Positions 4,999-54,082 of a DNA stretch of 64,000 nt are shown in pieces. The stretch's first letter is position 1. Each line of letters starts with the position of its first letter. The stretch is from Parcubacteria group bacterium Gr01-1014_20. Its GTDB lineage: Bacteria; Patescibacteriota; Minisyncoccia; UBA6257; 2-01-FULL-56-20. The notes below the pieces were generated by a model. That model searched no databases. It was not told the DNA's origin and saw nothing but the letters and a program-made list of their open reading frames with translations. Location of the stretch: contig VMFW01000002.1 in the NCBI GenBank assembly GCA_007376265.1, forward strand, positions 13,970-77,969, given 5' to 3'. The position numbers and the translations under genes are program-made.

Positions 4999-5297
4999 AA
5001 TACAACAAACTGGTCCGAGACAAAATACCGGACATCATAAAAACAAAAGGTGGAGACTCAAAGACCCATCTCGCCACACTAGAAGAATACCTATCAAAAC
5101 TCGGAGATAAACTTCGAGAAGAGGTGGAAGAATTCCTGAAAGACAAAAACCCGGAAGAGTTGGCGGATATCCTCGAAGTCATCAAAGCGTTCGCAAATCT
5201 CCAAAGCCTAACACTCGCTGACATCGAAAAAATTCGAGCAAAAAAAGCCGAGGAGCGTGGTGGATTCGAAAAACGAATTATCCTCGAAGAAACCTAG
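4995..5297 (+). CDS. MazG-like / phosphoribosyl-ATP pyrophosphohydrolase-like nucleotide pyrophosphohydrolase
   Basis: 100 aa all-alpha: MKYNKLVRDKIPDIIKTKGG...EELADILEVI, the characteristic KLVRDKIP N-terminus of the PRA-PH/MazG-like family; ATGA overlap with the HAD gene. Confidence 0.65.
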   Translation: MKYNKLVRDKIPDIIKTKGGDSKTHLATLEEYLSKLGDKLREEVEEFLKDKNPEELADILEVIKAFANLQSLTLADIEKIRAKKAEERGGFEKRIILEET

Positions 5298-6751
5298 AGG
5301 CGCGGAAACAAAACCGCGCCTTTTTTTACCTCCAAATTCTTATCGTCTATCCAAACGATACTCTGAGAAATTTTCCCTGCAGTCTCTGGCAAAAACGGCT
5401 TAAGCAACCCCGCCACGTTATCTAAAATTACAACTAAGTTCAAAATTTCCTTTTTCTTAGACTCCGCCTCTTTCCAAACCTCGTGATCATTTACATATTT
5501 ATCGCCGAAAGAAATAAGTTCGTTTATAGCCCCAATCGCCTCGTGTAGTTTAAATTCATGAATTTTCTTGTCGAGCAAATTTCTGGCGGCCTCGATTTTT
5601 TCCTTAACCGAAGTTTCAACCTTCGAAAATTCCACCTCAAATTTTCCAAATTTTGAAGCTAGGCCTAAAACTCTGGCCGAGAAATTGCCTAAACCATTCG
5701 CCAATTCTCCGTTATAAACTCGCTCTAGATTAGCAACGCTAAAATCTCCGTCCTCATGCGACGGCACTTCTTTCAAGAAATAATAGCGCAGAGCGTCCGT
5801 ACCGTATTTTTTGACCAATTCAATTGGGTCAATCACATTGCCAACCGACTTAGACATCTTTGCTCCCTCAATCGTCAGAAATCCATGCACTAAAATGTGT
5901 TTTGGTAACGGCAAACCTGCCGACAAAAGCATCCCCGGCCAAATCGCCGCGTGAAATCTCAAAATATCTTTCCCAATTAATTGCGCATCCGCCGGCCACC
6001 ACTTTTTCCAGTCTTCGTTTCGGCCATATCCAAGCGCTGAAATATAGTTAGTTAACGCATCGCACCACACGTACATCGTCTGACTAGGATCTCCCGGAAC
6101 CGGCACTCCCCAGGGCAAATCCTTACTCGGCCTAGAAAAACTTACATCTTCCAAACCCTCACTAATCAAAGCCAAAATTTCGTTCGCTCGCCCTTCAGGA
6201 ATTATTCGTAATTCATTATTCCTAATTCGTAATTCTATTTCTTTAGAGTATTTTGATAGTCGAAAGAAATAGTTCTCCTCCTCCACTACCTCCGGCTCCC
6301 TCTGGTGATCTCGGCATTTGCCGTCTACTAAATCTTTTTCGGTAATAAACTTCTCGCACCCTACGCAGTAAAGCCCTTTGTAGTTCTTTTTATAAATATC
6401 GCCGGCCTCAACCAGTTTTTTCCAAATCAACTCCACTCCTGGCCAATGCCTTTCTTTATCGCTCGTCCGAATAAAATCGTCCCAGCTTAAATTGAGCGCG
6501 CCTTTTAGCGCCTTGAAACTCTCCACAATTTCATCCGTAAACACCTGCGGCTCTTTCCCGGCCTCTTGGGCTTTTCTGAAAACCTTCACTCCATGTTCGT
6601 CTGTGCCCGTTAAGTAAAAAGTTTCAAAACCCTTAGCCCTATGATACCGCGCCAAAACATCCGCCTGCACCTTTTCAAGCGCGTGCCCGACATGCGGAGG
6701 CGCGTTCGCATAATCAATCGCCGTTGTAATGTAATACTTCTTCTTTTCCAT
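5294..6751 (-). CDS. metG: methionyl-tRNA synthetase (short form)
   Basis: HVGHALE (HIGH-like), CVGCEKF...CRDH zinc knuckle, KMSKS motif, C-terminal LFPRL. Confidence 0.9.
   Translation of the reverse strand: MEKKKYYITTAIDYANAPPHVGHALEKVQADVLARYHRAKGFETFYLTGTDEHGVKVFRKAQEAGKEPQVFTDEIVESFKALKGALNLSWDDFIRTSDKERHWPGVELIWKKLVEAGDIYKKNYKGLYCVGCEKFITEKDLVDGKCRDHQREPEVVEEENYFFRLSKYSKEIELRIRNNELRIIPEGRANEILALISEGLEDVSFSRPSKDLPWGVPVPGDPSQTMYVWCDALTNYISALGYGRNEDWKKWWPADAQLIGKDILRFHAAIWPGMLLSAGLPLPKHILVHGFLTIEGAKMSKSVGNVIDPIELVKKYGTDALRYYFLKEVPSHEDGDFSVANLERVYNGELANGLGNFSARVLGLASKFGKFEVEFSKVETSVKEKIEAARNLLDKKIHEFKLHEAIGAINELISFGDKYVNDHEVWKEAESKKKEILNLVVILDNVAGLLKPFLPETAGKISQSIVWIDDKNLEVKKGAVLFPRL
5299..5327 (+). 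terminator. terminator hairpin GGCGCGGAAACAAAACCGCGCC + T7 (copy 2); it overlaps the last 10 codons of convergent metG
   Basis: Identical 28-mer to 4245..4271; its minus-strand translation gives the metG C-terminus KKGAVLFPRL. Confidence 0.6.
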
Positions 6752-7757: not shown

Positions 7758-9023
7758 CTAGAATTTCAAAATCTTCCTGAAACTCTCACTTTCTTTGTAT
7801 GGCCCAATCACCGCCAAGTTAAGTCCTCGATCCACAAAAAGCGTCTTCGCCACCGCGCGAATCTCCTCCGCCCTAACCGCTTTCACGTTTTTAATAACTT
7901 CCTCTGGCTCTTTGGTTTTTCTCGTAATTATCTCTTGCCCACCGTAATAGCTGGCCAAATCGTCCGATCCCTCAAGTCCCAAAATAAAATTCCCGATTAA
8001 ATGGTCTTTAGACTTCTGAAGCTCTACCTCCGGCACCAATTCCGTAGTCAATCTTTTCATTTCTTCCAAAACCGCTTTTATAACAATCTCAATTTTTAAG
8101 TGATCCACGCCAGCCGCGACCGACATATACCCATGGTCCAGTGTTAAATCGGAATCAGCTTTCACATAATAGGCCGCCCCTAAATCATCTCTCACCTTGC
8201 GAAACAATCGCGAGCTCATCCCTCCGCCCAGAACGTTCCCCAAAACTTGAAGCGCGTGTCGCCTCTTATCAAAAACATCGAAAGCTCGGACTCCTAGTAC
8301 TAAATGGCTCTGGTCTGACTCTTTAAATTTTATCGAAAGCTCCGGCTTAGACTGTTTTTCAGTTGTCTTCAGCTTCTTAGGCGCCGGCAATTTTTTCAAA
8401 TGGCCAAAAGTTTCCTTGATCTGTCCCAAAACGTTTTTCTCTTGAAATGCTCCGGCCACGACTACCACCGTCTTCGACGCCACATAGTGTTTGGTTCGGT
8501 AAGTTTCAAACTGATCCCGCTTAAGCTCCCTAATCACCTCCTTTCTCCCAGCGATATCCCAACCTGCCGGTTGATCACCATACAAAAGCCCCGAAAAAAG
8601 TTCGTGCACCCTCCTCATCGGCGTGTCTTCATACATGTTAATCTCCTCAATAATCACGCCTCGCTCTTTCTCAATCTCCTCCGGAATAAAAATCGGATTT
8701 AGATATAAATCCGACACCAAATCCAACGCCTTTGCAATTTTCTCTTTCTGAACCTTAGCGTAATAACCCGTATACTGCCCTCCCGTGAAAGCGTTGTACT
8801 CCGCCCCCAAGCTGTCGAGTTCATTGGCAATCATCCCCCGTTTTGGTCGATTTTTAGTGCCTTTAAACATCAAATGTTCCAGGAAGTGGGACAAGCCATT
8901 GATATTTTTCGTTTCGTATTCCGACCCAGCCTCAACCAAAATCAAAACCGTCGCCGCCAAAGTGGATGCCTGCGGCACCAAAATCACCCTCAAACCGTTC
9001 TTTAAAGTTAACTTTTTATGCAT
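7758..9023 (-). CDS. M16-family zinc peptidase (insulinase-like)
   Basis: Inverted zinc motif HFLEHLMFKGT (HxxEH), 421 aa, two-domain M16 layout. Confidence 0.9.
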   Translation of the reverse strand: MHKKLTLKNGLRVILVPQASTLAATVLILVEAGSEYETKNINGLSHFLEHLMFKGTKNRPKRGMIANELDSLGAEYNAFTGGQYTGYYAKVQKEKIAKALDLVSDLYLNPIFIPEEIEKERGVIIEEINMYEDTPMRRVHELFSGLLYGDQPAGWDIAGRKEVIRELKRDQFETYRTKHYVASKTVVVVAGAFQEKNVLGQIKETFGHLKKLPAPKKLKTTEKQSKPELSIKFKESDQSHLVLGVRAFDVFDKRRHALQVLGNVLGGGMSSRLFRKVRDDLGAAYYVKADSDLTLDHGYMSVAAGVDHLKIEIVIKAVLEEMKRLTTELVPEVELQKSKDHLIGNFILGLEGSDDLASYYGGQEIITRKTKEPEEVIKNVKAVRAEEIRAVAKTLFVDRGLNLAVIGPYKESESFRKILKF

Positions 9024-28679: not shown

Positions 28680-31600
28680 CTACCTAACGTTGACCTCGAA
28701 AATAATGCTCTTTACCCCTCCCCTCGCATTAGTAGCCGTCACTTGAATCGTTTTTATCCCAGCCTGACTGTAAATATGTCTTGGATCAGGCGTCACAAAA
28801 ACCCCACTGTCCCCGCTATAACTATTAGAGACTCCGTCTCCCCAATTTACAACGTAACTAATCGGACCATATCCCGTACTCACCGCTTTAACTCTCCAAG
28901 AACCTTGTTGATTGGGCGTTAGACTATTAGAACCGGTTATAGTCAATGTCGTTGGAGCTGGCGCATATAGACTTGCCTTCTCAAGCCAATTATCAGCTGT
29001 GTACCCAACTGGCGGGACGGTAGGGGGATTACCAGTCACATATCTAATCTTATACCAACAGTAGCCTCCTCCGAGCACGGGTCCCTCTAAAGCCTTTCCA
29101 GTTGTTCCCGCCCCCATACCCACGAGCGCGCTCCCAGTCGGAGAAGCTGTACTCCTCACAGTAATACCAGCAGTGGTAACGACATCCTCACCATAGGGAT
29201 AAACTGGATTAACCGTAAACCTTGCCGCACAAGCAGTCTTCACCGGAAAAGAAACATTAACCGCAAGACTGCGACTAGCCCGGAGCGCCCCAGAGTCAAC
29301 CGCTGTCACTCTGATTGTGTAGGGATCGTCCATTTTGTAAGTGTGCGTGATGTTCACAGCGACACCACTGTTTCCGGTGTAGGCGCTAAAATTTCCATCA
29401 CCCCAATCAACTTGATAGTTGAGTAAGCCTCCTTCTGCATCAGCTCCCGTAACTACCCAGTTCCCCTGCACTCCAACCCCGAGAGCGGTCGGTCCCGTCA
29501 GGCTAGCAACGGTTGGCGCTCCATTGGCTGCGCCCACTGTTACCGTTTTTGACTGAGTCGTCACCTGACCCACTTTTTGCCCCCTAACCGTCACCGAAAT
29601 ATTTTTCTGGCCAGTAGTCAAATACGTATGGGAGAAAGTTTTTGTCTCTCCACTTAACCAAATAGAGCCGGTCAGCAATGGACCGCCGTCGCCCCAATCA
29701 ACCGAATACGTCATCGTGGTCGAAGCCGTCGCCGTAACCTGCCAAGTTCCAAGTATGTTTGCTGGTAATGTGGTGGGTCCAGTAAAACTGGAGATTACAG
29801 GAACAGAAAGCGCCAAAACCTTAATATTGTACGTCTGCGTAGTTGATAGTTGCCCATCACTCACAGTAACCGTCATCACATAATCTCCCGGAGTTTTGTA
29901 CGTATGGATCGGGCCTTCAGTTGTAACACCACTCGAACCAATAATTCCGGTGCGGGTGGTGGAACTTCCGTCTCCAAAATCAATATTATAGGTAATCGTA
30001 ACCGTTGGAATATTTGGCGAGTTTGCCGTATCTCTCACCGAAAGCTGCCAGGAATTACTATCAAACACATACACTTGAGTCGGTCCAGCAATAGTCAGAA
30101 CAGGCGGCAAGTTAACAACCGTTGAGCTCACCATCACCACCAAGGATTCCGTATCCGAAAGTTGACCATCAGAAGCCGTTACGGTGATAGTGCGGCTCCC
30201 ACTCTGCGTGAAAGTGTGTTGGGCAGGTACACTTTGTCCGCTCGCAATATTCGGAAATGTCGAAGCAGCTGTCCCATCTCCCCAATTGAACGTATAACTT
30301 AGAGCCGTTCCGTCTGGGTCAACCGCTTTCGCCTGCCAAGTTGTATTTACGTTCACGGTCGCCTGATTCGGAGTCGTAAAAGGATCAAGCACCGGCGGAC
30401 GATTGGGGCCAGCGGCTCCTACCACACTAACTGAAAAACTTTCCGTGTCGGTTAACTGTCCATCCGAAACCGTCACGGTAAATGTTTTTGTTCCGGATTG
30501 AGTGTAGGTGTGAGAAATGCTGATCGCCTGTCCGCTCGCGCCTGTGTAGGTTGTGTTGCTCGTACCATCCCCCCAGTTCACATTGTACGCAAGAGCTGGA
30601 GAATCGGCATCGAGTGCCATCACTTGCCAAGAGCCGGATGTATTAACATTAATCGTGTTTACACCAGTCGGCACCCCCAAAACAGGCGCCTGATTTGGCG
30701 GCGGAGGGCAAACTACTATAAGTAGGAAGTTTTCTACCGACCAACCGTCATAATTACCCGGAAAATCCATTCTCCACCAAGTGTATCCATTCGCCGAAAC
30801 TGGTCCGTCAACAATTAACCCTTCGGTCCCTAGCGGCACTGTTCCCACCACCGTCGCTCCGGTTGAAGCCGACACCCGCACATTCAAGTTAGCTGCTGTT
30901 CGAACAGTACAACCTCTCGCAAAACCTCCCACTGTGCCGCCACCACCAGCCTGATTCAGTCCTCCAGAACCACCTTGAGTTGTGATGGTAAACGTTCGGC
31001 TTGTGCTGTTTATTCCTCCCGCCTCAACATTCCCAGCGTAAATCGCAATTGCAAAACTAGTTCCTTCCAATATTTGGCCGTTAAACTCCTGCGGAACTGT
31101 CCATACGTAAACTCCATCATTCGGTTCGTCTTGAGCCAAAAGTCCAACTCCGGCCAGGTAAATATGTACTCTCGTTACACTCGATGGTGCCGTCCACCTA
31201 ATTGTAATCGGCTCTCCTGGATGCCATATGTCACCCGCCGCTGGAGAAATAATAGTAATCGCTCCGCCCACAGACTGATTCCCACCCGAAACTAATTCCA
31301 GCCAATAAACTCCTCCACCCGCCTCTGCCGACCAACCCCTCGGACCGCCATCATAATCTATTCGCCACCAGCAATAACCAACCGTCGCGCCAGGACCTCC
31401 AATAATAGTCCCCATCGCTCCATTCGCTTTGTTACCTAAAATCGTCCCGTTCGGAGTTTCTCTAACTCTTAAGTCCTGCTCGGCGCTCGTATTCACCACT
31501 CGCACCCTATCCCCAATTTGAAATCGCGTACTGCACGGCGCGGCCACCTGCGTGGTGAGAACTGATTCAGCCGAAAGCCCACCACCATCTGTCACGGTAA

Positions 31601-34040
31601 GCTTGATATTGAAACTCCCGACTTGAGCGTAAGCGTGAGAGAGTTCTTGAGTCACCGAGGCTCCAGTGATTGCAACTGGTGCTACAGCGCTACCATCGCC
31701 CCAATCAACTTTGTATGAAGCTAGCGCCCCTTCTAAGTCAGTCGCCTGAAATCGCCAAGTGTTTGGAATATTTGTAAATGAACTGGTTGAACCATTGAAA
31801 CTCACGATGGTTGGCGGTTGATTGCCCCGCCCATACTTACATCTATACCCCACCCATCTAAACGGGGGGGCATCGGAAATGGCTTGGCAGTTCCAGGCAC
31901 CACCGGTTGCGGCCGCCATGCCTGCGGCGTCGAGAGAATTTCGAGCCGGCTCACTCGGTATCGAGACCTGCCCATTCTCAACAAAGTAATAATAGGCTTC
32001 TGTAAAAACGCTTCCCTGACTCGGCTGGATTTTCCTCCCCAAGATGTTATCCCCTGTAAACGCCCACTCGCCAGTTAAGTGTCCGATTGAACTTAAGTAG
32101 TCCATCACCGACCACCCATCTGGCCCGTAATCGTAATTAACTTTGACCCAAGTGTAACCACCAACGGTTTGCGGTGCTTCTATCACCACTCCCTTAGCCG
32201 GCGCAAACTGCCTAAACCCAGAATACAAAATGTCCTTGTATTGAGTGCCTAAAACGTAACTGCCATTTGCCTCCACTCGAACATTTACGTTCGCCGTAAC
32301 CACCACTCTATCGCCCACCCCAATCGGACCCCCTCCACCCTGGGCTGTCACCGTAACCGTAAACGGGTATTGAGCGCTTAAACCGGCGGCGTCCTTAACC
32401 CTAAACATCAAAGAATAGGTCCCCGCCACTGTAAACGTATGCGTCAAAGCCGCCACCGTTCCGGCTGGAGTCGCGCTTCCATCTCCCCAGGTCGCCTCGT
32501 ATGTCAACACATCCCCAGTCGCGTCTATTGCTACTATCGTCCAGGTCCCACCCTGCCCAACATTCAAACTGGTCGGCCCGTCCACTCGAGAAATCACTGG
32601 CGGTTGATTGTTGTCCCCGCCAGGAACTGGGTCACCAATCGTGAACTGATTACTTAAAATAGTATTCGGTGAGCTTGTGTCTCTCCGATTAACCGTCGCC
32701 TTTATTTTATAAGTGCCATTTGCAATCGTAGTCGGAATTACCCAGCTAAAATCTCCTCCCCCCTGAATACTGACTGGGATATTGTCTTTAACAATCGCGA
32801 TGCTGTTCAAATTGTTTCCATTCGCATCAACTAAAATTAGCGATACCTCGCTCACGTTCCAAGCCGTTGGAGTATTCCACCCAATTCGATGAGTTTGACC
32901 CTTAGCCCAACTCTCTCCGCCTACGGGAGAGGAAAAACTACCCTCCCCTGTGGGTGTTGATGTCGGATTTCCGCCGGGCGGCGCCGTACCAGAAATCCTG
33001 AAAGCGCCACTAATAGAGTTTCGATCGCTTCCATTCCCGCTGTAATCGGCCGTCGCCTTAACCACGTACAAACCATCTTTAACATCCGAGGCGATCATCC
33101 AACTCGAACCAGTCGTATAGCCACCACTATTATTCCCTGGATTAACCTCGCTTCCTTTTGTGATGATCACCCTCTCGGTAGGAGCAGTAGTTGAATCGTT
33201 ATACGGACCAGCCAACTTCGCAGTTAATCCAACCGGAGCGTAATATTGATAGACCGGCAATGTACCCCAGCTAACGGGCAAATTCGTTCCTTTTTGATAA
33301 GTCGCCCCACCGGATGGTTGAGATAATGTGAAATCTCCTCCCGCGCTTGGCGGCGGAACGTTAGTGTTGCTCGGCAAAGTAACTTTTGCCAACCACATGG
33401 TTCCATCAGTCGCCGCCTCCGCTGACCAACCGATTAAATCCGTACAACTCGTAATCCCATTGGGACAATAACGCCCCCAATTAATCTTCCACCAAATATA
33501 ACCATCCTGATAATAAGGCCCTTCCTCAATCACTTTCCCACCTAAAATAAACGGCCCGTCCAAAACCTTTCCCTTATTACCCACGTAAATGGTAGTAATG
33601 ACATTATCAACACGGTTAAGTCCCTCGTAAACTTGAGATAAAATAGACGGCTGTCTTCTCACCCTCAAGGTATCCGATAAAACCTCAACCTCATCGTCCT
33701 TCACAAATCTAGGTTGAAGTTTAGAAATTCCAGATTCGGCCACCCATCCGTCTGGGTTCTCGTCAAAATCGACATTCCAATACCAAACATTTCCGCTATT
33801 ACTCGGACCAGCAATCACTGTTCCAATCGAACGATTGGGCTGGCTACCTAAATCAGCGCTAGTCGCCGTCGGAAACTCCTTAACCTTCAGGTTGGCGTTA
33901 GGCGCTGCTACCACTTGAACTCTATCGTCAATCGAAAACGTTGTGTTTGGTAGAACTTGTGCCTCAGCCATCCCGAGAAACCAAGGCGTCGACCCGAACA
34001 AAAACCCCGCTAAAACCGCAAAAACAATTGCTTTTTTCAT
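28680..34040 (-). CDS. giant (1786 aa) secreted protein with multiple SH3b-like and PKD-like (xWGDG) repeats
   Basis: Signal peptide; at least 5 SH3b-like modules (GDRVQVVAAPNANLKVKEFP, GVGDRVVVTANVNVRV, FQIGDRVRVVNTSAEQDLRVRETPNG); about 8 PKD-like modules with the WGDGS/T signature. Confidence 0.85.
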   Translation of the reverse strand: MKKAIVFAVLAGFLFGSTPWFLGMAEAQVLPNTTFSIDDRVQVVAAPNANLKVKEFPTATSADLGSQPNRSIGTVIAGPSNSGNVWYWNVDFDENPDGWVAESGISKLQPRFVKDDEVEVLSDTLRVRRQPSILSQVYEGLNRVDNVITTIYVGNKGKVLDGPFILGGKVIEEGPYYQDGYIWWKINWGRYCPNGITSCTDLIGWSAEAATDGTMWLAKVTLPSNTNVPPPSAGGDFTLSQPSGGATYQKGTNLPVSWGTLPVYQYYAPVGLTAKLAGPYNDSTTAPTERVIITKGSEVNPGNNSGGYTTGSSWMIASDVKDGLYVVKATADYSGNGSDRNSISGAFRISGTAPPGGNPTSTPTGEGSFSSPVGGESWAKGQTHRIGWNTPTAWNVSEVSLILVDANGNNLNSIAIVKDNIPVSIQGGGDFSWVIPTTIANGTYKIKATVNRRDTSSPNTILSNQFTIGDPVPGGDNNQPPVISRVDGPTSLNVGQGGTWTIVAIDATGDVLTYEATWGDGSATPAGTVAALTHTFTVAGTYSLMFRVKDAAGLSAQYPFTVTVTAQGGGGPIGVGDRVVVTANVNVRVEANGSYVLGTQYKDILYSGFRQFAPAKGVVIEAPQTVGGYTWVKVNYDYGPDGWSVMDYLSSIGHLTGEWAFTGDNILGRKIQPSQGSVFTEAYYYFVENGQVSIPSEPARNSLDAAGMAAATGGAWNCQAISDAPPFRWVGYRCKYGRGNQPPTIVSFNGSTSSFTNIPNTWRFQATDLEGALASYKVDWGDGSAVAPVAITGASVTQELSHAYAQVGSFNIKLTVTDGGGLSAESVLTTQVAAPCSTRFQIGDRVRVVNTSAEQDLRVRETPNGTILGNKANGAMGTIIGGPGATVGYCWWRIDYDGGPRGWSAEAGGGVYWLELVSGGNQSVGGAITIISPAAGDIWHPGEPITIRWTAPSSVTRVHIYLAGVGLLAQDEPNDGVYVWTVPQEFNGQILEGTSFAIAIYAGNVEAGGINSTSRTFTITTQGGSGGLNQAGGGGTVGGFARGCTVRTAANLNVRVSASTGATVVGTVPLGTEGLIVDGPVSANGYTWWRMDFPGNYDGWSVENFLLIVVCPPPPNQAPVLGVPTGVNTINVNTSGSWQVMALDADSPALAYNVNWGDGTSNTTYTGASGQAISISHTYTQSGTKTFTVTVSDGQLTDTESFSVSVVGAAGPNRPPVLDPFTTPNQATVNVNTTWQAKAVDPDGTALSYTFNWGDGTAASTFPNIASGQSVPAQHTFTQSGSRTITVTASDGQLSDTESLVVMVSSTVVNLPPVLTIAGPTQVYVFDSNSWQLSVRDTANSPNIPTVTITYNIDFGDGSSTTRTGIIGSSGVTTEGPIHTYKTPGDYVMTVTVSDGQLSTTQTYNIKVLALSVPVISSFTGPTTLPANILGTWQVTATASTTMTYSVDWGDGGPLLTGSIWLSGETKTFSHTYLTTGQKNISVTVRGQKVGQVTTQSKTVTVGAANGAPTVASLTGPTALGVGVQGNWVVTGADAEGGLLNYQVDWGDGNFSAYTGNSGVAVNITHTYKMDDPYTIRVTAVDSGALRASRSLAVNVSFPVKTACAARFTVNPVYPYGEDVVTTAGITVRSTASPTGSALVGMGAGTTGKALEGPVLGGGYCWYKIRYVTGNPPTVPPVGYTADNWLEKASLYAPAPTTLTITGSNSLTPNQQGSWRVKAVSTGYGPISYVVNWGDGVSNSYSGDSGVFVTPDPRHIYSQAGIKTIQVTATNARGGVKSIIFEVNVR

Positions 34041-48581: not shown

Positions 48582-49613
48582 GTGCCAAAGCCACGATCAC
48601 CCAGAAATCCCACCAACAAAGATCACTACGGGATCCTCGAAGTAAATCCTCGAGCTAGCCAAGAAGTCATCAAGGCTGCTTTTCATGCCCTAATGAAGGT
48701 TCATCATCCAGACAAACATGGTGATGAAACCTTGGCTAGAAAAATAACCATAGCCTACGAGATCTTGGGCGACCCAGATAAACGGGCTACTTACGATGAG
48801 ACCAGAAAAGTAAAAACCGGAACCATGATTGGCAACTATCGAGTTATTGAGAAAATTGCCGAAGGTGGATTCGGCACCACTTATCTTGGCGAACATGCAA
48901 TCCTCCAAGAACCGGTCTGCATTAAACACTGCGGTCAAGTCGACCCACAACATGATTCCATCCTTATCGAAGAAGCCAAATCGATTTGGAATCTCCGCCA
49001 CTACGGCCTGCCCGTCATGCAAAACCTGGAACGCCTACCCGACGGTAGCCTTGCTCTCGTCATGACCTACGTTCCAGGAAAAACTTTGCGTAAGGTTGTT
49101 GACAAGGTCGGCCGCCTCGAAGCTGAGCACGTTGCGTGGATTACCGAAAGGATCTTAAACGTTCTTAAATACCTCCACTTCAACGGCGTCGTTCACGGAG
49201 ATTTGAAGCCAGACAACATTATCGTTCAACACGAAAGCCACATGGTTGTTCTCGTTGACTTCGGCCTTGCCATGGTAAAGCCAACCAGCAAGAGCACCGC
49301 AAAAGGATTCACTGAATTCTTCGCTCCTCCCGAACAACTAGCCGGCCTCGCTTTAATTCCCGAATCCGATTTCTACAGCTTGGGCATGACCATGCTCTAC
49401 GCCCTAAGCGGCAATCTAAAGTCTCTCGAGCGAAAAGAAGTTCCGAGCGACGTACCCGATCCCCTGTGCGATTTTATTCGAAAACTTATCACCCGCGACC
49501 CAATGTCACGACCACGGTGGGAGAACGTAGACCTTTTTGCTGAAATTCAAAAAGTTCGCGAACAATCCTTTGGGCGTAGCCGATCTGGAATGAAACCAAT
49601 CCCTGGTGCCTAA
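48582..49613 (+). CDS. J-domain (DnaJ-like) fused to a Ser/Thr protein kinase domain
   Basis: J domain DHYGILEV...VHHPDKHGD...YEILGDPDKRATYD (HPD motif); kinase GGFGTTYLG, VCIKH, HGDLKPDNII, DFGLA, APPE; GTG start after GAAAGGAG. Confidence 0.8.
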   Translation: MPKPRSPRNPTNKDHYGILEVNPRASQEVIKAAFHALMKVHHPDKHGDETLARKITIAYEILGDPDKRATYDETRKVKTGTMIGNYRVIEKIAEGGFGTTYLGEHAILQEPVCIKHCGQVDPQHDSILIEEAKSIWNLRHYGLPVMQNLERLPDGSLALVMTYVPGKTLRKVVDKVGRLEAEHVAWITERILNVLKYLHFNGVVHGDLKPDNIIVQHESHMVVLVDFGLAMVKPTSKSTAKGFTEFFAPPEQLAGLALIPESDFYSLGMTMLYALSGNLKSLERKEVPSDVPDPLCDFIRKLITRDPMSRPRWENVDLFAEIQKVREQSFGRSRSGMKPIPGA

Positions 49614-49635
49614 ACCCTAACGGAAGGAAAAACAA

Positions 49636-50607
49636 ATGTCAGAAAGTGCCGATTTTGATCCCGGCGTATGGAGAGGACACGACTTCAGAAGTGCCCGGGC
49701 AGTTTATGACGCGCACGTTGGCCGAAGCTACGTAGATGCCACCGCCGCCGGCAAGAAAAACGCCGACCTCATCCCTTCCAGCATCACCACTCAGAGCCCG
49801 GCGCCACTTGCTATTCTTTGTGACGTAACCGGTTCTATGGGCGAGTGGCCCGCCACCATCTTTTCCAAGCTCCCCTATCTCGAACTCGAGGGGCAGGAAT
49901 ACCTTGGAAAAGAGATGGAAATTTGTTTCGCCGCCGTCGGGGACGCCTACACAGACCAGTACCCTATCCAGGTTCGCCCGTTCGCAAAAGGAACCGATCT
50001 CAAGAAACAGCTCAAAGAACTGGTCATTGAGGGCCACGGTGGCAACCAGCAAACTGAAAGCTATGAACTCTCCGCTCTCTACTTTGCAAGAAACGTCAGT
50101 ATGCCCAACGCCATCAGCCCCATCCTCATTTTCATCGGCGACGAGCAACCCTACGACTTCGTAGACAAAAGCCAAGCAAAATCTTTGGCATACGTCGATC
50201 TTCAGACTCGATTGAGCACAGACGAGATCTTCGAGGAACTGAAGAGAAAGTACTCCGTTTATTTGATCCGCAAACCGTACAGACTCACCGGTCGCAATGA
50301 CATCAGCGAAGAAGACGTCCGCATCAGAAAGGCCTGGGTCAAACTCCTCGGCGAAGATCACATCTCTGATCTGCCCGAAGCCGGGCGGGTTGTCGACGTT
50401 ATCTTCGGCATCCTCGCGAAAGAAACCGGTCGAGTTGAATACTTCGAGAAAGAATTGACCGAGCGCCAAAAGCCCGATCAAATCAAAACCGTCATGAAGT
50501 CTCTGGCAAGCGTGCATCTGTTGCCACCGCCGAGCAAGAGCAAGAAATCCGGCCAATCAACTCTGCGCAATCCCGGCACCGGTCGCAAAACCCAACCTCT
50601 AGTTTAA
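49636..50607 (+). CDS. von Willebrand factor A (vWA) domain protein with intact MIDAS
   Basis: LAILCDVTGSMG (DxTGS MIDAS) and downstream vWA strands (ILIFIGDEQP); RBS GGAAGGA. Confidence 0.75.
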   Translation: MSESADFDPGVWRGHDFRSARAVYDAHVGRSYVDATAAGKKNADLIPSSITTQSPAPLAILCDVTGSMGEWPATIFSKLPYLELEGQEYLGKEMEICFAAVGDAYTDQYPIQVRPFAKGTDLKKQLKELVIEGHGGNQQTESYELSALYFARNVSMPNAISPILIFIGDEQPYDFVDKSQAKSLAYVDLQTRLSTDEIFEELKRKYSVYLIRKPYRLTGRNDISEEDVRIRKAWVKLLGEDHISDLPEAGRVVDVIFGILAKETGRVEYFEKELTERQKPDQIKTVMKSLASVHLLPPPSKSKKSGQSTLRNPGTGRKTQPLV

Positions 50608-50658
50608 ACTCAAATAGAGCGCACCGATCGTAAAGATCGGTGCGCTCAAGGAGTCTTC

Positions 50659-51645
50659 ATGCCACAACCAGAACTCTTTGTTACTCTCTGGCCAAGTTTC
50701 CCCCATTTCGATCGCTTCTCTAGAGATTCCCGTATCGCTGGTATTCGCTTAAACAGCGCCATGATCTCAAACCCAGAATTAGAGAAAGAGCTAGTACTTG
50801 TAAAAGATTCCAAAACCGAAATCCCGATGTACTTTGACGCAAAAGCAAGACAACTTCGAGTCGAAGAAGTTCATGAAAATCCCGACTATCTCGACATAAG
50901 CCTGAACCACCCGATCTCCGTCCAGACTCCCTGCATCGTACTTTTCAAGCAAGAAATCGATCAAGCCATGCTAGCGGAAGTCACCGAAGGCGGCAGACGT
51001 CTCAAGTTCTCGCTCAATCCTCGCTATAACGTAAGACCTGGTGAATCCCTTCATATCCGACACTCCAGCCTGCAAGTCCACGGTCCAAACTTTACCGACA
51101 TCGAAAAGGAAAAAATCCGGCGTGTCCGAGAATTCGGCTTCCGTCGATATTTTCTATCCTACGTCGAAAACCAATCCATCATTGATGAATTCCTCGAAAT
51201 GGTGGGCAGCGACGCTGAGGTTTTTCTGAAAATCGAAAACGAGCGCGGTCTTGAATTCGTGGCGAGTGAGTTCCAAAAAAGAGATGGTCTCTATCTAGTG
51301 GCCGCCAGGGGCGATCTTTATGTAGAGCTAGATCGTCCTCATAAAATCCTGCAAGCCCTCAAGCTGATCATCAGCAAAGACCCAGAAGCCTGTGTCGGCT
51401 CAAGGATCCTGTTGTCCATAATCGGTGACCCCGTTCCTTCCTGTGCCGACTTTCTCGAGCTGGCTTGGCTCTACGACATCGGTTATCGAAAAATGATGCT
51501 CTGCGACGAAATCTGTCTTAGGGAAGAGTGGCTTGGAACCGCTATCAATGCCTTTGATAGTTTCCGAAACTCTTATCCTGAAGACCAAATCACTCTCGAC
51601 CTTCGGGATGAAACTGAAATCTCTCCTATAGAATCAATTGCATAA
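50659..51645 (+). CDS. divergent pyruvate-kinase-like TIM-barrel protein (PK barrel without the C-terminal regulatory domain)
   Basis: Matches the PK barrel landmarks: VTLWPS (cf. CTIGPAS), AGIRLNSA (cf. ARLNFSHG), LKIENERG (cf. SKIENQEG), AARGDLYVEL (cf. ARGDLGVEI), MMLCDEIC (cf. VMLSGESA); RBS AAGGAG. Confidence 0.65.
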   Translation: MPQPELFVTLWPSFPHFDRFSRDSRIAGIRLNSAMISNPELEKELVLVKDSKTEIPMYFDAKARQLRVEEVHENPDYLDISLNHPISVQTPCIVLFKQEIDQAMLAEVTEGGRRLKFSLNPRYNVRPGESLHIRHSSLQVHGPNFTDIEKEKIRRVREFGFRRYFLSYVENQSIIDEFLEMVGSDAEVFLKIENERGLEFVASEFQKRDGLYLVAARGDLYVELDRPHKILQALKLIISKDPEACVGSRILLSIIGDPVPSCADFLELAWLYDIGYRKMMLCDEICLREEWLGTAINAFDSFRNSYPEDQITLDLRDETEISPIESIA

Positions 51646-51682: not shown

Positions 51683-51739
51683 CCCACTACATACTCATTC
51701 TTGAAAAAAAAGCTTTTTTTGATACACTAACCATTGCAT

Positions 51740-52011
51740 TCCCCGGTAGCTCAGCGGTAGAGCGGATCCCTGTCGGATAGGCAGCCTATAAGAGTAATCT
51801 TATTTGAAAATTTCGGGATAACGGTGAACCCTTCGATATGCTTTTTGGGCATATAAAGGTAACACCGTGGGAACCCCGCCGAGGCGGGGGCACCGTAGAG
51901 ACTAGATACCGAAACATCCCACCCAGGATGATGATATAGTCCACGCCCTTTGGAAACTTTGGGATAAGTGTAAGGATAAGGTCGTAGGTTCGAATCCTAC
52001 CCGGGGAGCCA
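51740..52011 (+). tRNA. tRNA-Asn(GUU) interrupted in the anticodon loop (after U35) by a group I intron; exons 51740..51773 and 51971..52011, CCA encoded
   Basis: Exon 1 is TCCCCGGTAGCTCAGCGGTAGAGCGGATCCCTGT. Exon 2 is TAAGGATAAGGTCGTAGGTTCGAATCCTACCCGGGGAGCCA. The joined product folds as a canonical tRNA with anticodon loop CUGUUAA and is nearly identical in D- and T-arms to Bacillus-type tRNA-Asn. Confidence 0.7.
51774..51970 (+). ncRNA. group I intron (~197 nt, small IC3-like, no ORF) within tRNA-Asn
   Basis: 5' exon ends in U paired to a GCAG internal guide (U.G wobble), intron ends in G; P7 from R-like CCGTAGAGACTAGA and S-like GATATAGTCC; stable hairpins TATAAGA/TCTTATA, ATATGC/GCATAT, CCCCGCC/GGCGGGG; resembles the 205-nt Azoarcus tRNA-Ile intron. 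Confidence 0.7.
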
Positions 52012-52048
52012 AATAAAAATACTCGATGTTCGATCGGGTATTTTTGTT

Positions 52049-52067
52049 TCTCGGGTAGGATTCAAAC
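52049..52067 (-). repeat. inverted partial copy of the tRNA-Asn 3' end (TCTCGGGTAGGATTCAAAC)
   Basis: 15 of 16 match to the reverse complement of GTTCGAATCCTACCCGGG. Confidence 0.35.
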
Positions 52068-52155
52068 AGGGAAAGGGGTCGGGAAAACGGGAGTTTTCCT
52101 GTGGCGGAAGCATTGAAACCGCTGGGTTTCAAAAAATTTGTGATAGCAAATTTTG

Positions 52156-52179
52156 TTCGATTGCCTACCCGGGGAGCCA
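52156..52179 (+). repeat. direct repeat of the tRNA-Asn 3' end (att-like): TTCGATTGCCTACCCGGGGAGCCA
   Basis: 23 of 24 nt shared with tRNA positions 51989..52011 (TTCGAATCCTACCCGGGGAGCCA), 145 bp downstream of the tRNA. Confidence 0.6.
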
Positions 52180-52273
52180 GTAGAAAACTTAGGTCAGTTT
52201 TAGGAAAATTTACGCGATAAAAAACGCCCAGTTCGTATTTGAGCCAGGCGTCAAATTTTTGATCTGGGCGAGT

Positions 52274-53371
52274 TCATGGCATTACTCCAGTAAGCTCGTC
52301 CATTAATTCGTCTACGGAAAGAATGCGGTCCACGCGAGATGCATTTGTCCCCACGGTAAAAATCGGAAGGTCAGAAGTGTCGTTGGAATCCGCTGCACTC
52401 AAGAGTGCATTACAGATACAAAAAGCTTCATAGCCTTCCAACGCAAGGCAAGTCATACGGCCATCCTCACCCCCGTGGAGTAGATATTGTTTGTCGCAAA
52501 GAAGCGGTCGTCCACGCGAAAGCGCTTGCTGATATCCTGGTGAGCTTTTGATGATTCGGAAAGGCATACCCGCTGGCGATCCAGGATTTGTCACAACCTC
52601 GATATCTTCCTCTCGCGCGGCAACAATGGCCCGCTTGAACTCTTCTGATGCGCCACTTTCATCTGTTGCGGCAAATCGAGTGCCAATTTGTACACCATCA
52701 GCTCCAACGTTCATCCAACGCACAATGTCTTCGCGCGCATAGATACCACCCGCTACGACAACCGGGAAATCTCCGTTTTTCTGAGCCACTTCCTTCACTG
52801 GCCCAAAAAGTTCTTCGAGCCGGAACTCGGGTTTGGAAATATCTTCGACGTTAAAACCCAGGTGCCCACCTGCAAGCGGTCCCTCAAGAACCACTGCATC
52901 CGGCATTCGTCCGTAACGGCTCCAGCGACGGCAGATAAGTTCTAGCGCCCGGCCAGAAGAGATAATCGGGACAAGCGCTATCTGCGCATCTCCCACTATC
53001 TCCGGCAAAGTCATCGGTAAACCTGCGCCCGCGATAATAGCGTTCACTCCACCCTCAATTGCGCCTTCGATAGAAGGAATGTAAGTCTTTTCAATCAGGA
53101 CCATGCAATTGATAGCAACTACACCATTGTTTCCTGATAGTCGCCTTGCTTCTTCAATCTCGAGCTTGGCTGCTTCACGATGGCTTACCTTAAAGCCAGT
53201 TCTTCTTTCAACCATCCTGTCTAAGGCAATGAAGGATACTGTCCCTACGCCACCTCTAAGCGCAACAGCTCCGGCAAGGCGTGCGAGCGATACACCCGCG
53301 CCCATGCCTCCCTGAATAAGGATTACCCCCCGATCCAACCCCCGGACGGCAATTTTCGGCAACTCCACCAT
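52274..53371 (-). CDS. nitronate monooxygenase / NAD(P)H-dependent flavin oxidoreductase (NMO/FabK-like), high-GC gene
   Basis: GGMGAGVS FMN-binding N-terminus, VVAGGI, TIM-barrel NPD pattern; GC about 58%. Confidence 0.75.
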   Translation of the reverse strand: MVELPKIAVRGLDRGVILIQGGMGAGVSLARLAGAVALRGGVGTVSFIALDRMVERRTGFKVSHREAAKLEIEEARRLSGNNGVVAINCMVLIEKTYIPSIEGAIEGGVNAIIAGAGLPMTLPEIVGDAQIALVPIISSGRALELICRRWSRYGRMPDAVVLEGPLAGGHLGFNVEDISKPEFRLEELFGPVKEVAQKNGDFPVVVAGGIYAREDIVRWMNVGADGVQIGTRFAATDESGASEEFKRAIVAAREEDIEVVTNPGSPAGMPFRIIKSSPGYQQALSRGRPLLCDKQYLLHGGEDGRMTCLALEGYEAFCICNALLSAADSNDTSDLPIFTVGTNASRVDRILSVDELMDELTGVMP

Positions 53372-53545
53372 AGTCTTACCTCCCCTTTTCTTCTATTCTC
53401 ATGTAGACCCGATTGCTGGCTTAAGCCTAACATTTGTTAAAAATATTACGCAATACGTACACGTACGTTCCGCTACTAACAGGCGTAAGTCCGTAGCATT
53501 TAAGCACAGCGCAATCCTGAGCAAAACCGAAGACTATTAGTGAAA

Positions 53546-53565
53546 CTCCTACCCGTGGAGCAAAT
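53546..53565 (+). repeat. degenerate third direct copy of the tRNA-Asn 3' end (CTCCTACCCGTGGAGCAAAT)
   Basis: 17 of 20 match to ATCCTACCCGGGGAGCCAAAT; with 52156..52179 it brackets the NMO-like gene. Confidence 0.45.
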
Positions 53566-53830: not shown

Positions 53831-54082
53831 TTAACGATGAGGACAGCCGGCCCAACAACAAGGTCGGCGCATTCCGCCCTTAAGCTTAGAGAGTGCCTTC
53901 TCGATGCGGATACCTCTTGTCTCCACTTTCTTGCCTGATGTAATCCAGCAAATCCACTCATTGCGCGCGAGTGGGGTAATATCTTCCCATACTAATTTTG
54001 CCGCTCCGGAAGAAGCAAGAGCTTTTCGTAAATCCGCTGGCATACCATGCACCCCGCTAAGAGCGGTTTCTTTTTTTCCCAC
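53831..54082 (-). CDS. YdeI/OmpD-associated (bacteriocin-protection-like) family protein
   Basis: PADLRKALASSGAAKLVWEDITPLARNEWICWITSGKKVETRGIRIEKALSKL matches the YdeI-family signature. Confidence 0.55.
   Translation of the reverse strand: MGKKETALSGVHGMPADLRKALASSGAAKLVWEDITPLARNEWICWITSGKKVETRGIRIEKALSKLKGGMRRPCCWAGCPHR

Follow-up and report, generated by a model that had tools for sequence, protein, structure and literature searches.

Candidate attachment-site scars at a tRNA-Asn gene of a Parcubacteria genome: tandem copies of the tRNA 3' end and mosaic modules in relatives

Classical tRNA-targeted islands and prophages occupy the 3'-end sublocation of tRNA genes; the asn-tRNA islands of enterobacteria are an example. 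Their integrase gene lies inside the element, usually beside the tRNA. The locus described here is a tRNA-Asn gene in a 64 kb window, that is, the whole stretch of DNA analysed, from the genome of a groundwater Parcubacteria bacterium of the candidate phyla radiation (CPR); coordinates are window positions. Three same-strand copies of the tRNA-Asn 3' end delimit a gene-less interval and a second interval with a gene for a nitronate monooxygenase (NMO)-family flavin oxidoreductase. As in classical tRNA islands, one boundary is an intact tRNA gene and the opposite one a partial 3' direct repeat, the region is variable between relatives, and the synteny breaks, with differing content, have their breakpoints at the repeat. 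Unlike these islands, the locus has no integrase beside the tRNA, a normal base composition, a very small size and a group I intron in the target gene.

Tandem arrays at the end of a small-RNA gene are known from Dehalococcoides. At ssrA each island has a 20-bp repeat of the gene end as its boundary; 15 are without an integration module, 16 encode the serine recombinase DsiB, and the islands are kilobases long (McMurdie et al. 2011, PMC3146451). The authors proposed that the islands without an integration module may be cis-mobilizable elements (PMC3146451). This array is the closest analogue of the window locus. Both have tandem modules downstream of a small-RNA gene, bounded by a direct repeat of about 20 bp of its 3' end; in both, a short motif to the left of the repeat departs from the gene sequence and the content varies between strains. 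In the window, however, the modules measure 0.1-1.4 kb, no recombinase was seen, the minimal shared core has 7 nt, the target is an intron-bearing tRNA-Asn and the host is a CPR bacterium. A general framework is the accretion model of cis-mobilizable elements (CIMEs) and integrative and conjugative elements (ICEs) of streptococci (Pavlovic 2004; Bellanger 2011; review PMC5704250). Like CIMEs, the window has modules flanked by attachment (att) sites, without integration or transfer genes, in tandem at the target gene's end, and module 2 carries the NMO gene alone. CIMEs belong to Streptococcus ICE systems in which the cognate integrase is known and excision has been demonstrated, whereas the att sites of the window are predicted from sequence and its module 1 is gene-less. 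By analogy, the locus would add one more case, in miniature form, to the tandem att arrays already known.

The tRNA 3' end, GGTTCGAATCCTACCCGGGGAGCCA, is located at 51987-52011. Its 16-nt core CCTACCCGGGGAGCCA occurs exactly at 51996-52011, the tRNA end, and at 52164-52179, and with two mismatches at 53548-53563. With up to three mismatches allowed, the 16-mer has exactly these three matches in 64 kb, all on the plus strand; 0.30 were expected, and one of 100 shuffles reached three. Direct copy 2 (52156..52179, plus strand, TTCGATTGCCTACCCGGGGAGCCA) has the exact core and differs leftward from the tRNA by one indel and one mismatch, as an earlier sequence-only reading of this DNA had described. 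The more degenerate direct copy 3 named in that reading (53546..53565, plus strand; TCCTACCCGTGGAGCAAAT at 53547-53565) was also found; it comprises a degenerate core with 14/16 matches plus AAAT of the trailer and is the putative oldest junction. Its counterpart in the related locus L004 is GGAGCCAA, 209 nt upstream of the NMO gene there. The sequence-only reading had named additional complete tRNA genes as another source of the similarity; neither ARAGORN nor Rfam found any behind the copies, and sequence comparison likewise revealed no tRNA body upstream of copy 2 or copy 3. Nor do the junctions stem from misassembly, since the independent Logan contig L002 covers copy 3, the NMO gene, copy 2 and 51 nt of the first interval.

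The first interval, module 1, spans 52012-52163. It is 152 bp long; as claimed earlier, it has no gene, and no plausible open reading frame (ORF) was found in it. The interval is strongly structured (z-score -5.2 to -7). The two strong hairpins of the sequence-only reading are present; a third was found at 52133-52154, and 52011-52049 forms a terminator-like hairpin. Its right part is the 'U' arm (52071..52163, plus strand), a stretch of about 90 nt with hairpins at 52083-52100, 52113-52132 and 52133-52154 that abuts copy 2. The U arm is homologous to positions 5563-5732 of the related locus L035 (by BLAST, 87.5% in a stretch of 64 nt and 92.9% in one of 28 nt), where it also adjoins the core and where the 24-mer of copy 2, TTCGATTGCCTACCCGGGGAGCC, recurs at about 5566-5590. 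It is homologous to L014 2696-2797 (z 11) and recurs upstream of the NMO gene in L014/L015. The third U hairpin keeps its pairing in the window, L035 and L014 despite changes on both sides. An origin of the first interval from a decayed second tRNA-Asn with intron was rejected (z -1.1 versus shuffles). It is not a repeat family either: no other copies of U or of the interval were present in the window, and an nhmmer profile of U detected no further copies in all fetched loci.

A degenerate second U arm (U-up, 53473..53546, plus strand) has its homologue in the 5' half of the U unit of L014 (z 8.8-9.7) and runs into copy 3. The NMO gene is thus bracketed by two diverged units of U and core in direct orientation. 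A MAFFT alignment in an alternative register, which related the flank after copy 3 to the 3' end of U, was regarded as AT-rich noise.

An inverted partial copy of the tRNA 3' end (repeat I1, plus strand), reported before as 52049..52067, exists but is longer, with 26 nt at 52042..52067. Its arms, 51988-52013 and 52042-52067, are 81% complementary over 26 nt, or 24/26 when G-U pairs are counted, and it can pair with the tRNA end or with copy 2. Together with copy 2 it closes a 134-nt multibranch fold at 52046-52179 (z -5.2 as RNA, -3.6 as DNA), with 15-nt terminal inverted repeats at 52046-52060 and 52164-52179. A test for a miniature inverted-repeat transposable element or an insertion sequence gave no target-site duplication and no further copies in the window or the fetched loci. 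An 80-nt quasi-palindrome extends from the tRNA end through the trailer hairpin at its centre to the inverted copy. Inverted partial cores are located 86 nt upstream of a direct core in the window (52049-52060) and 37 nt upstream of one in L035 (about 5058-5068). The copy-3-type variant TACCCGTGGAG of the window has the inverted core of L035, CTCCACGGGTA, as its reverse complement.

Loci were fetched that encode NMO proteins 61-91% identical to that of the window (about 74-91% without the outlier L010). A remnant GGAGCCA, the 7-mer within the core, is found downstream of the NMO gene on the tRNA-sense strand in five lineages (window, L003, L004, L035 and L036). The sequences joined at it differ. 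At copy 2 of the window, the U arm on the left meets GTAGAAAACTTAG... of the NMO flank on the right. L003 has a module 'B' on the left and a window-type NMO flank on the right (87% over 60 nt). In L035, junction (a) joins the U arm, as in the window, to the start of module B; junction (b) joins module B (87.6% to L003 over 97 nt) to a 115-nt module C; and junction (c) joins module C to a module D of about 320 nt. L036 has unrelated sequence on the left and module D on the right (75% to L035 over 243 nt). The array of L035 is denser than that of the window and comprises U and core, a module of about 420 nt with a 65-aa ORF, GGAGCCA, the 115-nt module, an exact core, the module of about 320 nt and the NMO gene.

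Each of the four informative pairs agrees in one arm, at 82-88% identity, and stays at background level (52-62%) in the other. The background itself has a mean of 57% and a maximum of 65%, and BLAST also supports the arm homologies. Copy 2 of the window and L003 share the right arm (87%) and not the left (52%), while copy 2 and L035(a) share the left (85%) and not the right (52%). L035(b) and L003 have similar left arms (88%) and dissimilar right arms (62%), and L035(c) and L036 dissimilar left (53%) and similar right arms (82%). Homology breaks at the left edge of GGAGCCA between window and L003 and at its right edge between L003 and L035(b). These breaks at both edges confine the point of exchange to this 7-mer. 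The non-coding modules are 87.5-92.9% alike between genomes, versus 75.8% (window and L035) and 78.1% (L003 and L035) for the adjacent NMO coding sequence. Because the modules are more alike than the coding sequence beside them, the comparison suggests that they were exchanged after the genomes had diverged.

The three copies are best read as att junctions that arose by repeated site-specific integration at the tRNA-Asn gene, followed by internal deletion; the probability of this explanation is put at about 0.6. It is founded on the break of homology at GGAGCCA, with the same arm joined to different partners across genomes. GGAGCCA, common to all junctions across the genomes, comprises the discriminator-proximal acceptor bases plus CCA and most likely served a tyrosine recombinase with a 7-bp overlap as its strand-exchange (overlap) region, an assignment drawn from general properties of such enzymes. 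A circular element with an attP holding the last 7-16(24) nt of the tRNA would recombine with the tRNA gene. The gene would be rebuilt from element DNA, and its former 3' end would be displaced downstream as a direct repeat. The next insertion would repeat this, giving the order tRNA, newest module, core, older module, core. The decay gradient, with copy 2 and its U arm intact and copy 3 and its U arm decayed, fits such an accretion with the newest module beside the tRNA. The recombinase would be encoded elsewhere in the genome or lost, and the array is most likely inert now, like a cis-mobilizable element. In this reading the U arm would be a decayed element's right end (P arm), and the first interval would be the remnant of an element stripped of all between its ends, comparable to a cis-mobilizable element. 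The model specifies three sequences: an empty site would read CCTACCCGGGGAGCCA|GTAGAAAACTTAGG directly after the tRNA, the circle junction of module 1 would read TTGTTCGATTGCCTACCCGGGGAGCCA|AATAAAAATACTCG, and a loss of the NMO unit would join the left flank of copy 2 to AAATTTCTCTTGG. GGAGCCA within CCTACCCGGGGAGCCA offers a concrete core for seeking the recombinase and intact parent elements. CPR bacteria (Patescibacteria) have small genomes and few mobile elements have been described from them; an array of att scars shows site-specific integration shaping a local zone of plasticity.

The tRNA-Asn 3' end is a known kind of integration target: the identical 23-nt end occurs in seven viral contigs and abuts an integrase gene in four, large serine integrases in two and tyrosine integrases in two.

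Several observations weigh against repeated integration as the origin of the copies. In agreement with the earlier claim that no integrase is nearby, none was found in the 64 kb. Pfam comparison of the window ORFs of at least 150 aa, except for 28680-34040 and the start-cut ORF, detected no recombinase and neither PF00589 nor PF00239; for 42274-63371 the Pfam coverage came from a precomputed table. A phmmer search with four integrases against the window had no match. Seven window ORFs are without a Pfam match, and a very divergent recombinase is possible among the Pfam-negative ORFs. The comparison with related genomes proposed in the sequence-only reading was made and revealed no empty site among about 25 related loci; the closest relatives, L003 and L035, stop at the contig edge. 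Neither an attP nor a circular form was found. Downstream of the tRNA-Asn of locus L038, 8.8 kb contain no additional core, so the arrays are not universal. No counterpart of U, of module B or of the interval turned up among viral contigs, phages or plasmids. The interval had no BLAST match in phage and plasmid collections, and viral contigs scanned for exact occurrences of the U-core 23-mer, the end of module B and tRNA exon 1 gave zero matches. The two U arms of the window are linked only via L014 and have no detectable direct similarity. Modules of 115-420 nt are far below the size of typical islands. A simple integration model does not predict the inverted core copy. The NMO gene's GC content of 51.9% is not anomalous beside neighbouring genes with 44-53%, in a window with 46.7%. 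The linkage of NMO and VanY is kept in five lineages (window, L003, L004, L036 and L037), with variable intervening genes. The 1.1 kb beside the tRNA in L004 is backbone shared with the more distant L038. A recent insert had been considered for these 1.1 kb between tRNA-Asn and NMO and was rejected, as a 215-aa ORF is equally placed in L038 (45% identity, same upstream synteny).

The arrival of the NMO gene as integrated cargo is the weakest step of the model and is rather doubtful. The gene (52274..53371, minus strand) encodes 365 aa with a match to Pfam PF03060 (E 2e-39) and has homologues in Patescibacteria with 75-91% identity; its protein matches one of Parcubacteria group bacterium Gr01-1014_20 identically. 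The value of about 58% GC on which its foreign origin had been proposed was wrong. Module 2 (52180-53546) consists of the NMO gene with its own promoter and terminator and the decayed U arm, then copy 3 follows. The 3' flank of the gene (52180..52273, minus strand) shows conservation as far as the core and contains the terminator hairpin at about 52219-52252; the L003 alignment extends to 52173 and then stops. GGAGCCA flanks the NMO gene on both sides in L004 as well, with a spacing of 1390 nt versus 1383 nt in the window. This near-equal spacing implies that the bracketed unit predates the split of both lineages. If the NMO gene was integrated, it would have arrived long ago and been inherited vertically afterwards, as an ancient, fixed part of the genome and not a recent island. 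Of the succession of integrations and deletions at the tRNA that had been proposed, the mosaic GGAGCCA junctions support the events themselves, while the NMO gene as recent foreign cargo finds no support in its GC content, the VanY linkage and the age of the unit.

The promoter or leader region of the NMO gene (53372..53459, minus strand) is conserved; nucleotide alignments of L003, L004, L005 and L007 all stop at 53446-53459. About 85 nt upstream of the NMO start and a palindrome, ACGTACACGTACGT (together 53372-53471), are conserved at the nucleotide level in L003 (in part), L005, L007 and L014 despite differing neighbours. The stretch may serve as an operator-bearing promoter or as a leader RNA; Rfam gave no match for it. 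A core-like site in L005/L018 with three mismatches, 4.6 kb from the NMO gene, was dropped, being without tRNA features.

Duplication in place, by template switching or slippage at the palindrome of tRNA and terminator, would copy the tRNA 3' end in both directions with no mobile element and no site specificity. The 80-nt quasi-palindrome is a structure of the type that grows by template switching, the inverted copy could be a product of it, and tiny modules in a window without a recombinase suit such an origin. It leaves unexplained that unrelated modules in five genomes meet exactly at GGAGCCA with their arms swapped, that the U arm is unrelated to the tRNA or its intron (z -1.1) and that copy 3 is 1.4 kb away, and is considered unlikely. 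About equally improbable is an active integron-like array at the tRNA-Asn 3' end, composed of sub-kilobase modules with zero or one small gene and a tRNA-derived core each. A recombinase encoded elsewhere would insert, excise and exchange the modules between genomes, some modules would be closed by hairpins like attC, and the NMO gene would be a long-lived cassette. The modules are indeed cassette-sized, hold at most one small gene each and are reshuffled from genome to genome, and the non-coding ones are more conserved than the NMO gene. As in integron arrays, each of the small single-gene or gene-less units terminates in a recombination site, imperfect inverted repeats close some of these sites, and the units are re-assorted between genomes. 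Two modules are closed by hairpins, 52046-52179 in the window (z -5.2) and module C of L035 with CTCCACGGGTA 37 nt upstream of the core, and the pairing of the third U hairpin is maintained in the window, L035 and L014. The fold of module C is not significant (z -1.6), however, just three to four sequences are available per element, and the pairing of a palindrome can persist through correction at the DNA level alone. The inverted partner is present at two of about nine junctions and missing at most (L003, L004, L036, L035(b) and copy 3 of the window). Neither an IntI-like gene nor an attI or a common promoter (Pc) was found; unlike in integrons, the core is a tRNA end and not GTTRRRY, and the NMO gene has its own promoter.

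Scars of double-strand-break repair are less likely still. Homing nucleases would have cut the tRNA-Asn gene, and repair would have taken up filler DNA and duplicated part of the gene end. In line with nuclease activity at this gene, its anticodon loop holds a group I intron in the window, and GIY-YIG genes, bracketed by partial 5' copies, stand directly upstream of the tRNA-Asn of L004 and L038. These features are located at the 5' half and the anticodon, at a distance of 40-70 nt from the 3' core. GIY-YIG genes are absent from the window, and repair would not yield the same 7-nt junction in all modules. Chance similarity, or further complete or decayed tRNA genes, can hardly account for the copies. 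Copy 3 taken alone is only a 14/16 match; three copies stand against 0.30 expected and one of 100 shuffles reached as many, ARAGORN and Rfam detected no extra tRNAs, no tRNA-like body precedes copy 2 or 3, and orthologous GGAGCCA remnants exist in relatives.

The target gene, tRNA-Asn(GTT) at 51740-52011 on the plus strand, is split by an intron (parts 51738-51773 and 51971-52011). Exon 1 (51740..51773, plus strand, nt 1-35, ending ...CCCTGT) is identical to L004 8331-8364. Exon 2 (51971..52011, plus strand) encodes the CCA and holds the first att core (51996-52011). Both exons are contiguous and identical in the intronless L004 gene (L004 8290-8364), which ARAGORN called and which has an Rfam tRNA score of 69 bits. 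The intron (51774..51970, plus strand) is an ORF-less group I intron of 197 nt in the anticodon loop between nt 35 and 36 and is an exact insertion in comparison with L004. It matches Rfam RF00028 over the full length with 38.8-42.4 bits and an E-value of about 1e-8, under the gathering score of 50 bits; the last base of exon 1 is U and that of the intron is G. A literature search turned up no group I intron reported from a bacterial tRNA-Asn. As the intron interrupts the gene, ARAGORN made zero tRNA calls on the window. Island predictors that rely on tRNA calls and integrase genes would overlook such loci, as tRNA finders overlook the intron-bearing gene. Upstream is a promoter-like site, TTGAAA-16-TACACT with a TG extension (51701..51728, plus strand), and the same motif precedes the orthologous tRNA-Asn of L032. 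Downstream, the trailer hairpin followed by a T-run (52011..52049, plus strand; inverted repeat I4 with 17-nt arms, 88% complementary, RNA fold) is terminator-like by eye; a consensus terminator scan did not flag it.

The tRNA-Asn genes of L004 and L038 have GIY-YIG nuclease genes directly upstream (L004 8355-8657, minus strand, with 8610-8650; L038 7540-8034). These genes are bracketed by partial copies of the first ~28 nt of tRNA-Asn, one in L004 and two in L038, in which a GC-rich hairpin takes the place of the D-loop. The stop codon of the GIY-YIG ORF is the TAG within the tRNA 5' end. This arrangement mirrors the 3' repeats and may represent a nuclease element with a replacement 5' gene part.

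Upstream of the tRNA gene, a trio at 48582-51645 encodes a fusion of a DnaJ domain with a Ser-Thr kinase, a 323-aa protein without a Pfam match and a 328-aa protein that matches the pyruvate kinase (PK) barrel only. Its gene order is kept in the distant Patescibacteria L031 and L033. In L031-L034, chosen as relatives of the upstream PK-like gene, the trio of DnaJ-kinase, 323-aa protein and PK is kept while the downstream part is different. L032 has the orthologous tRNA-Asn, and its contig stops 43 nt beyond. L039, a population variant of L004, has the same arrangement as L004.

A very basic ORF of 37 aa, MAKRNSGIGRKQVSRSRKTKKRLAAKRVMLETKKKRK, without a Pfam match, accompanies the NMO gene in several relatives. 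It is located downstream of NMO in L035 (4784-4897, minus strand) and L036 (about 5494-5734) and upstream in L007 (5713-5832) and L012 (7004-7123). An OmdA-family gene (window 53831-54082, minus strand; L038 16400-16657) encodes proteins 73% identical to each other and lies downstream of tRNA-Asn in both genomes, at a distance of 1.8 kb in the window and 8.4 kb in L038. Its position suggests that it marks the far side of the variable zone.

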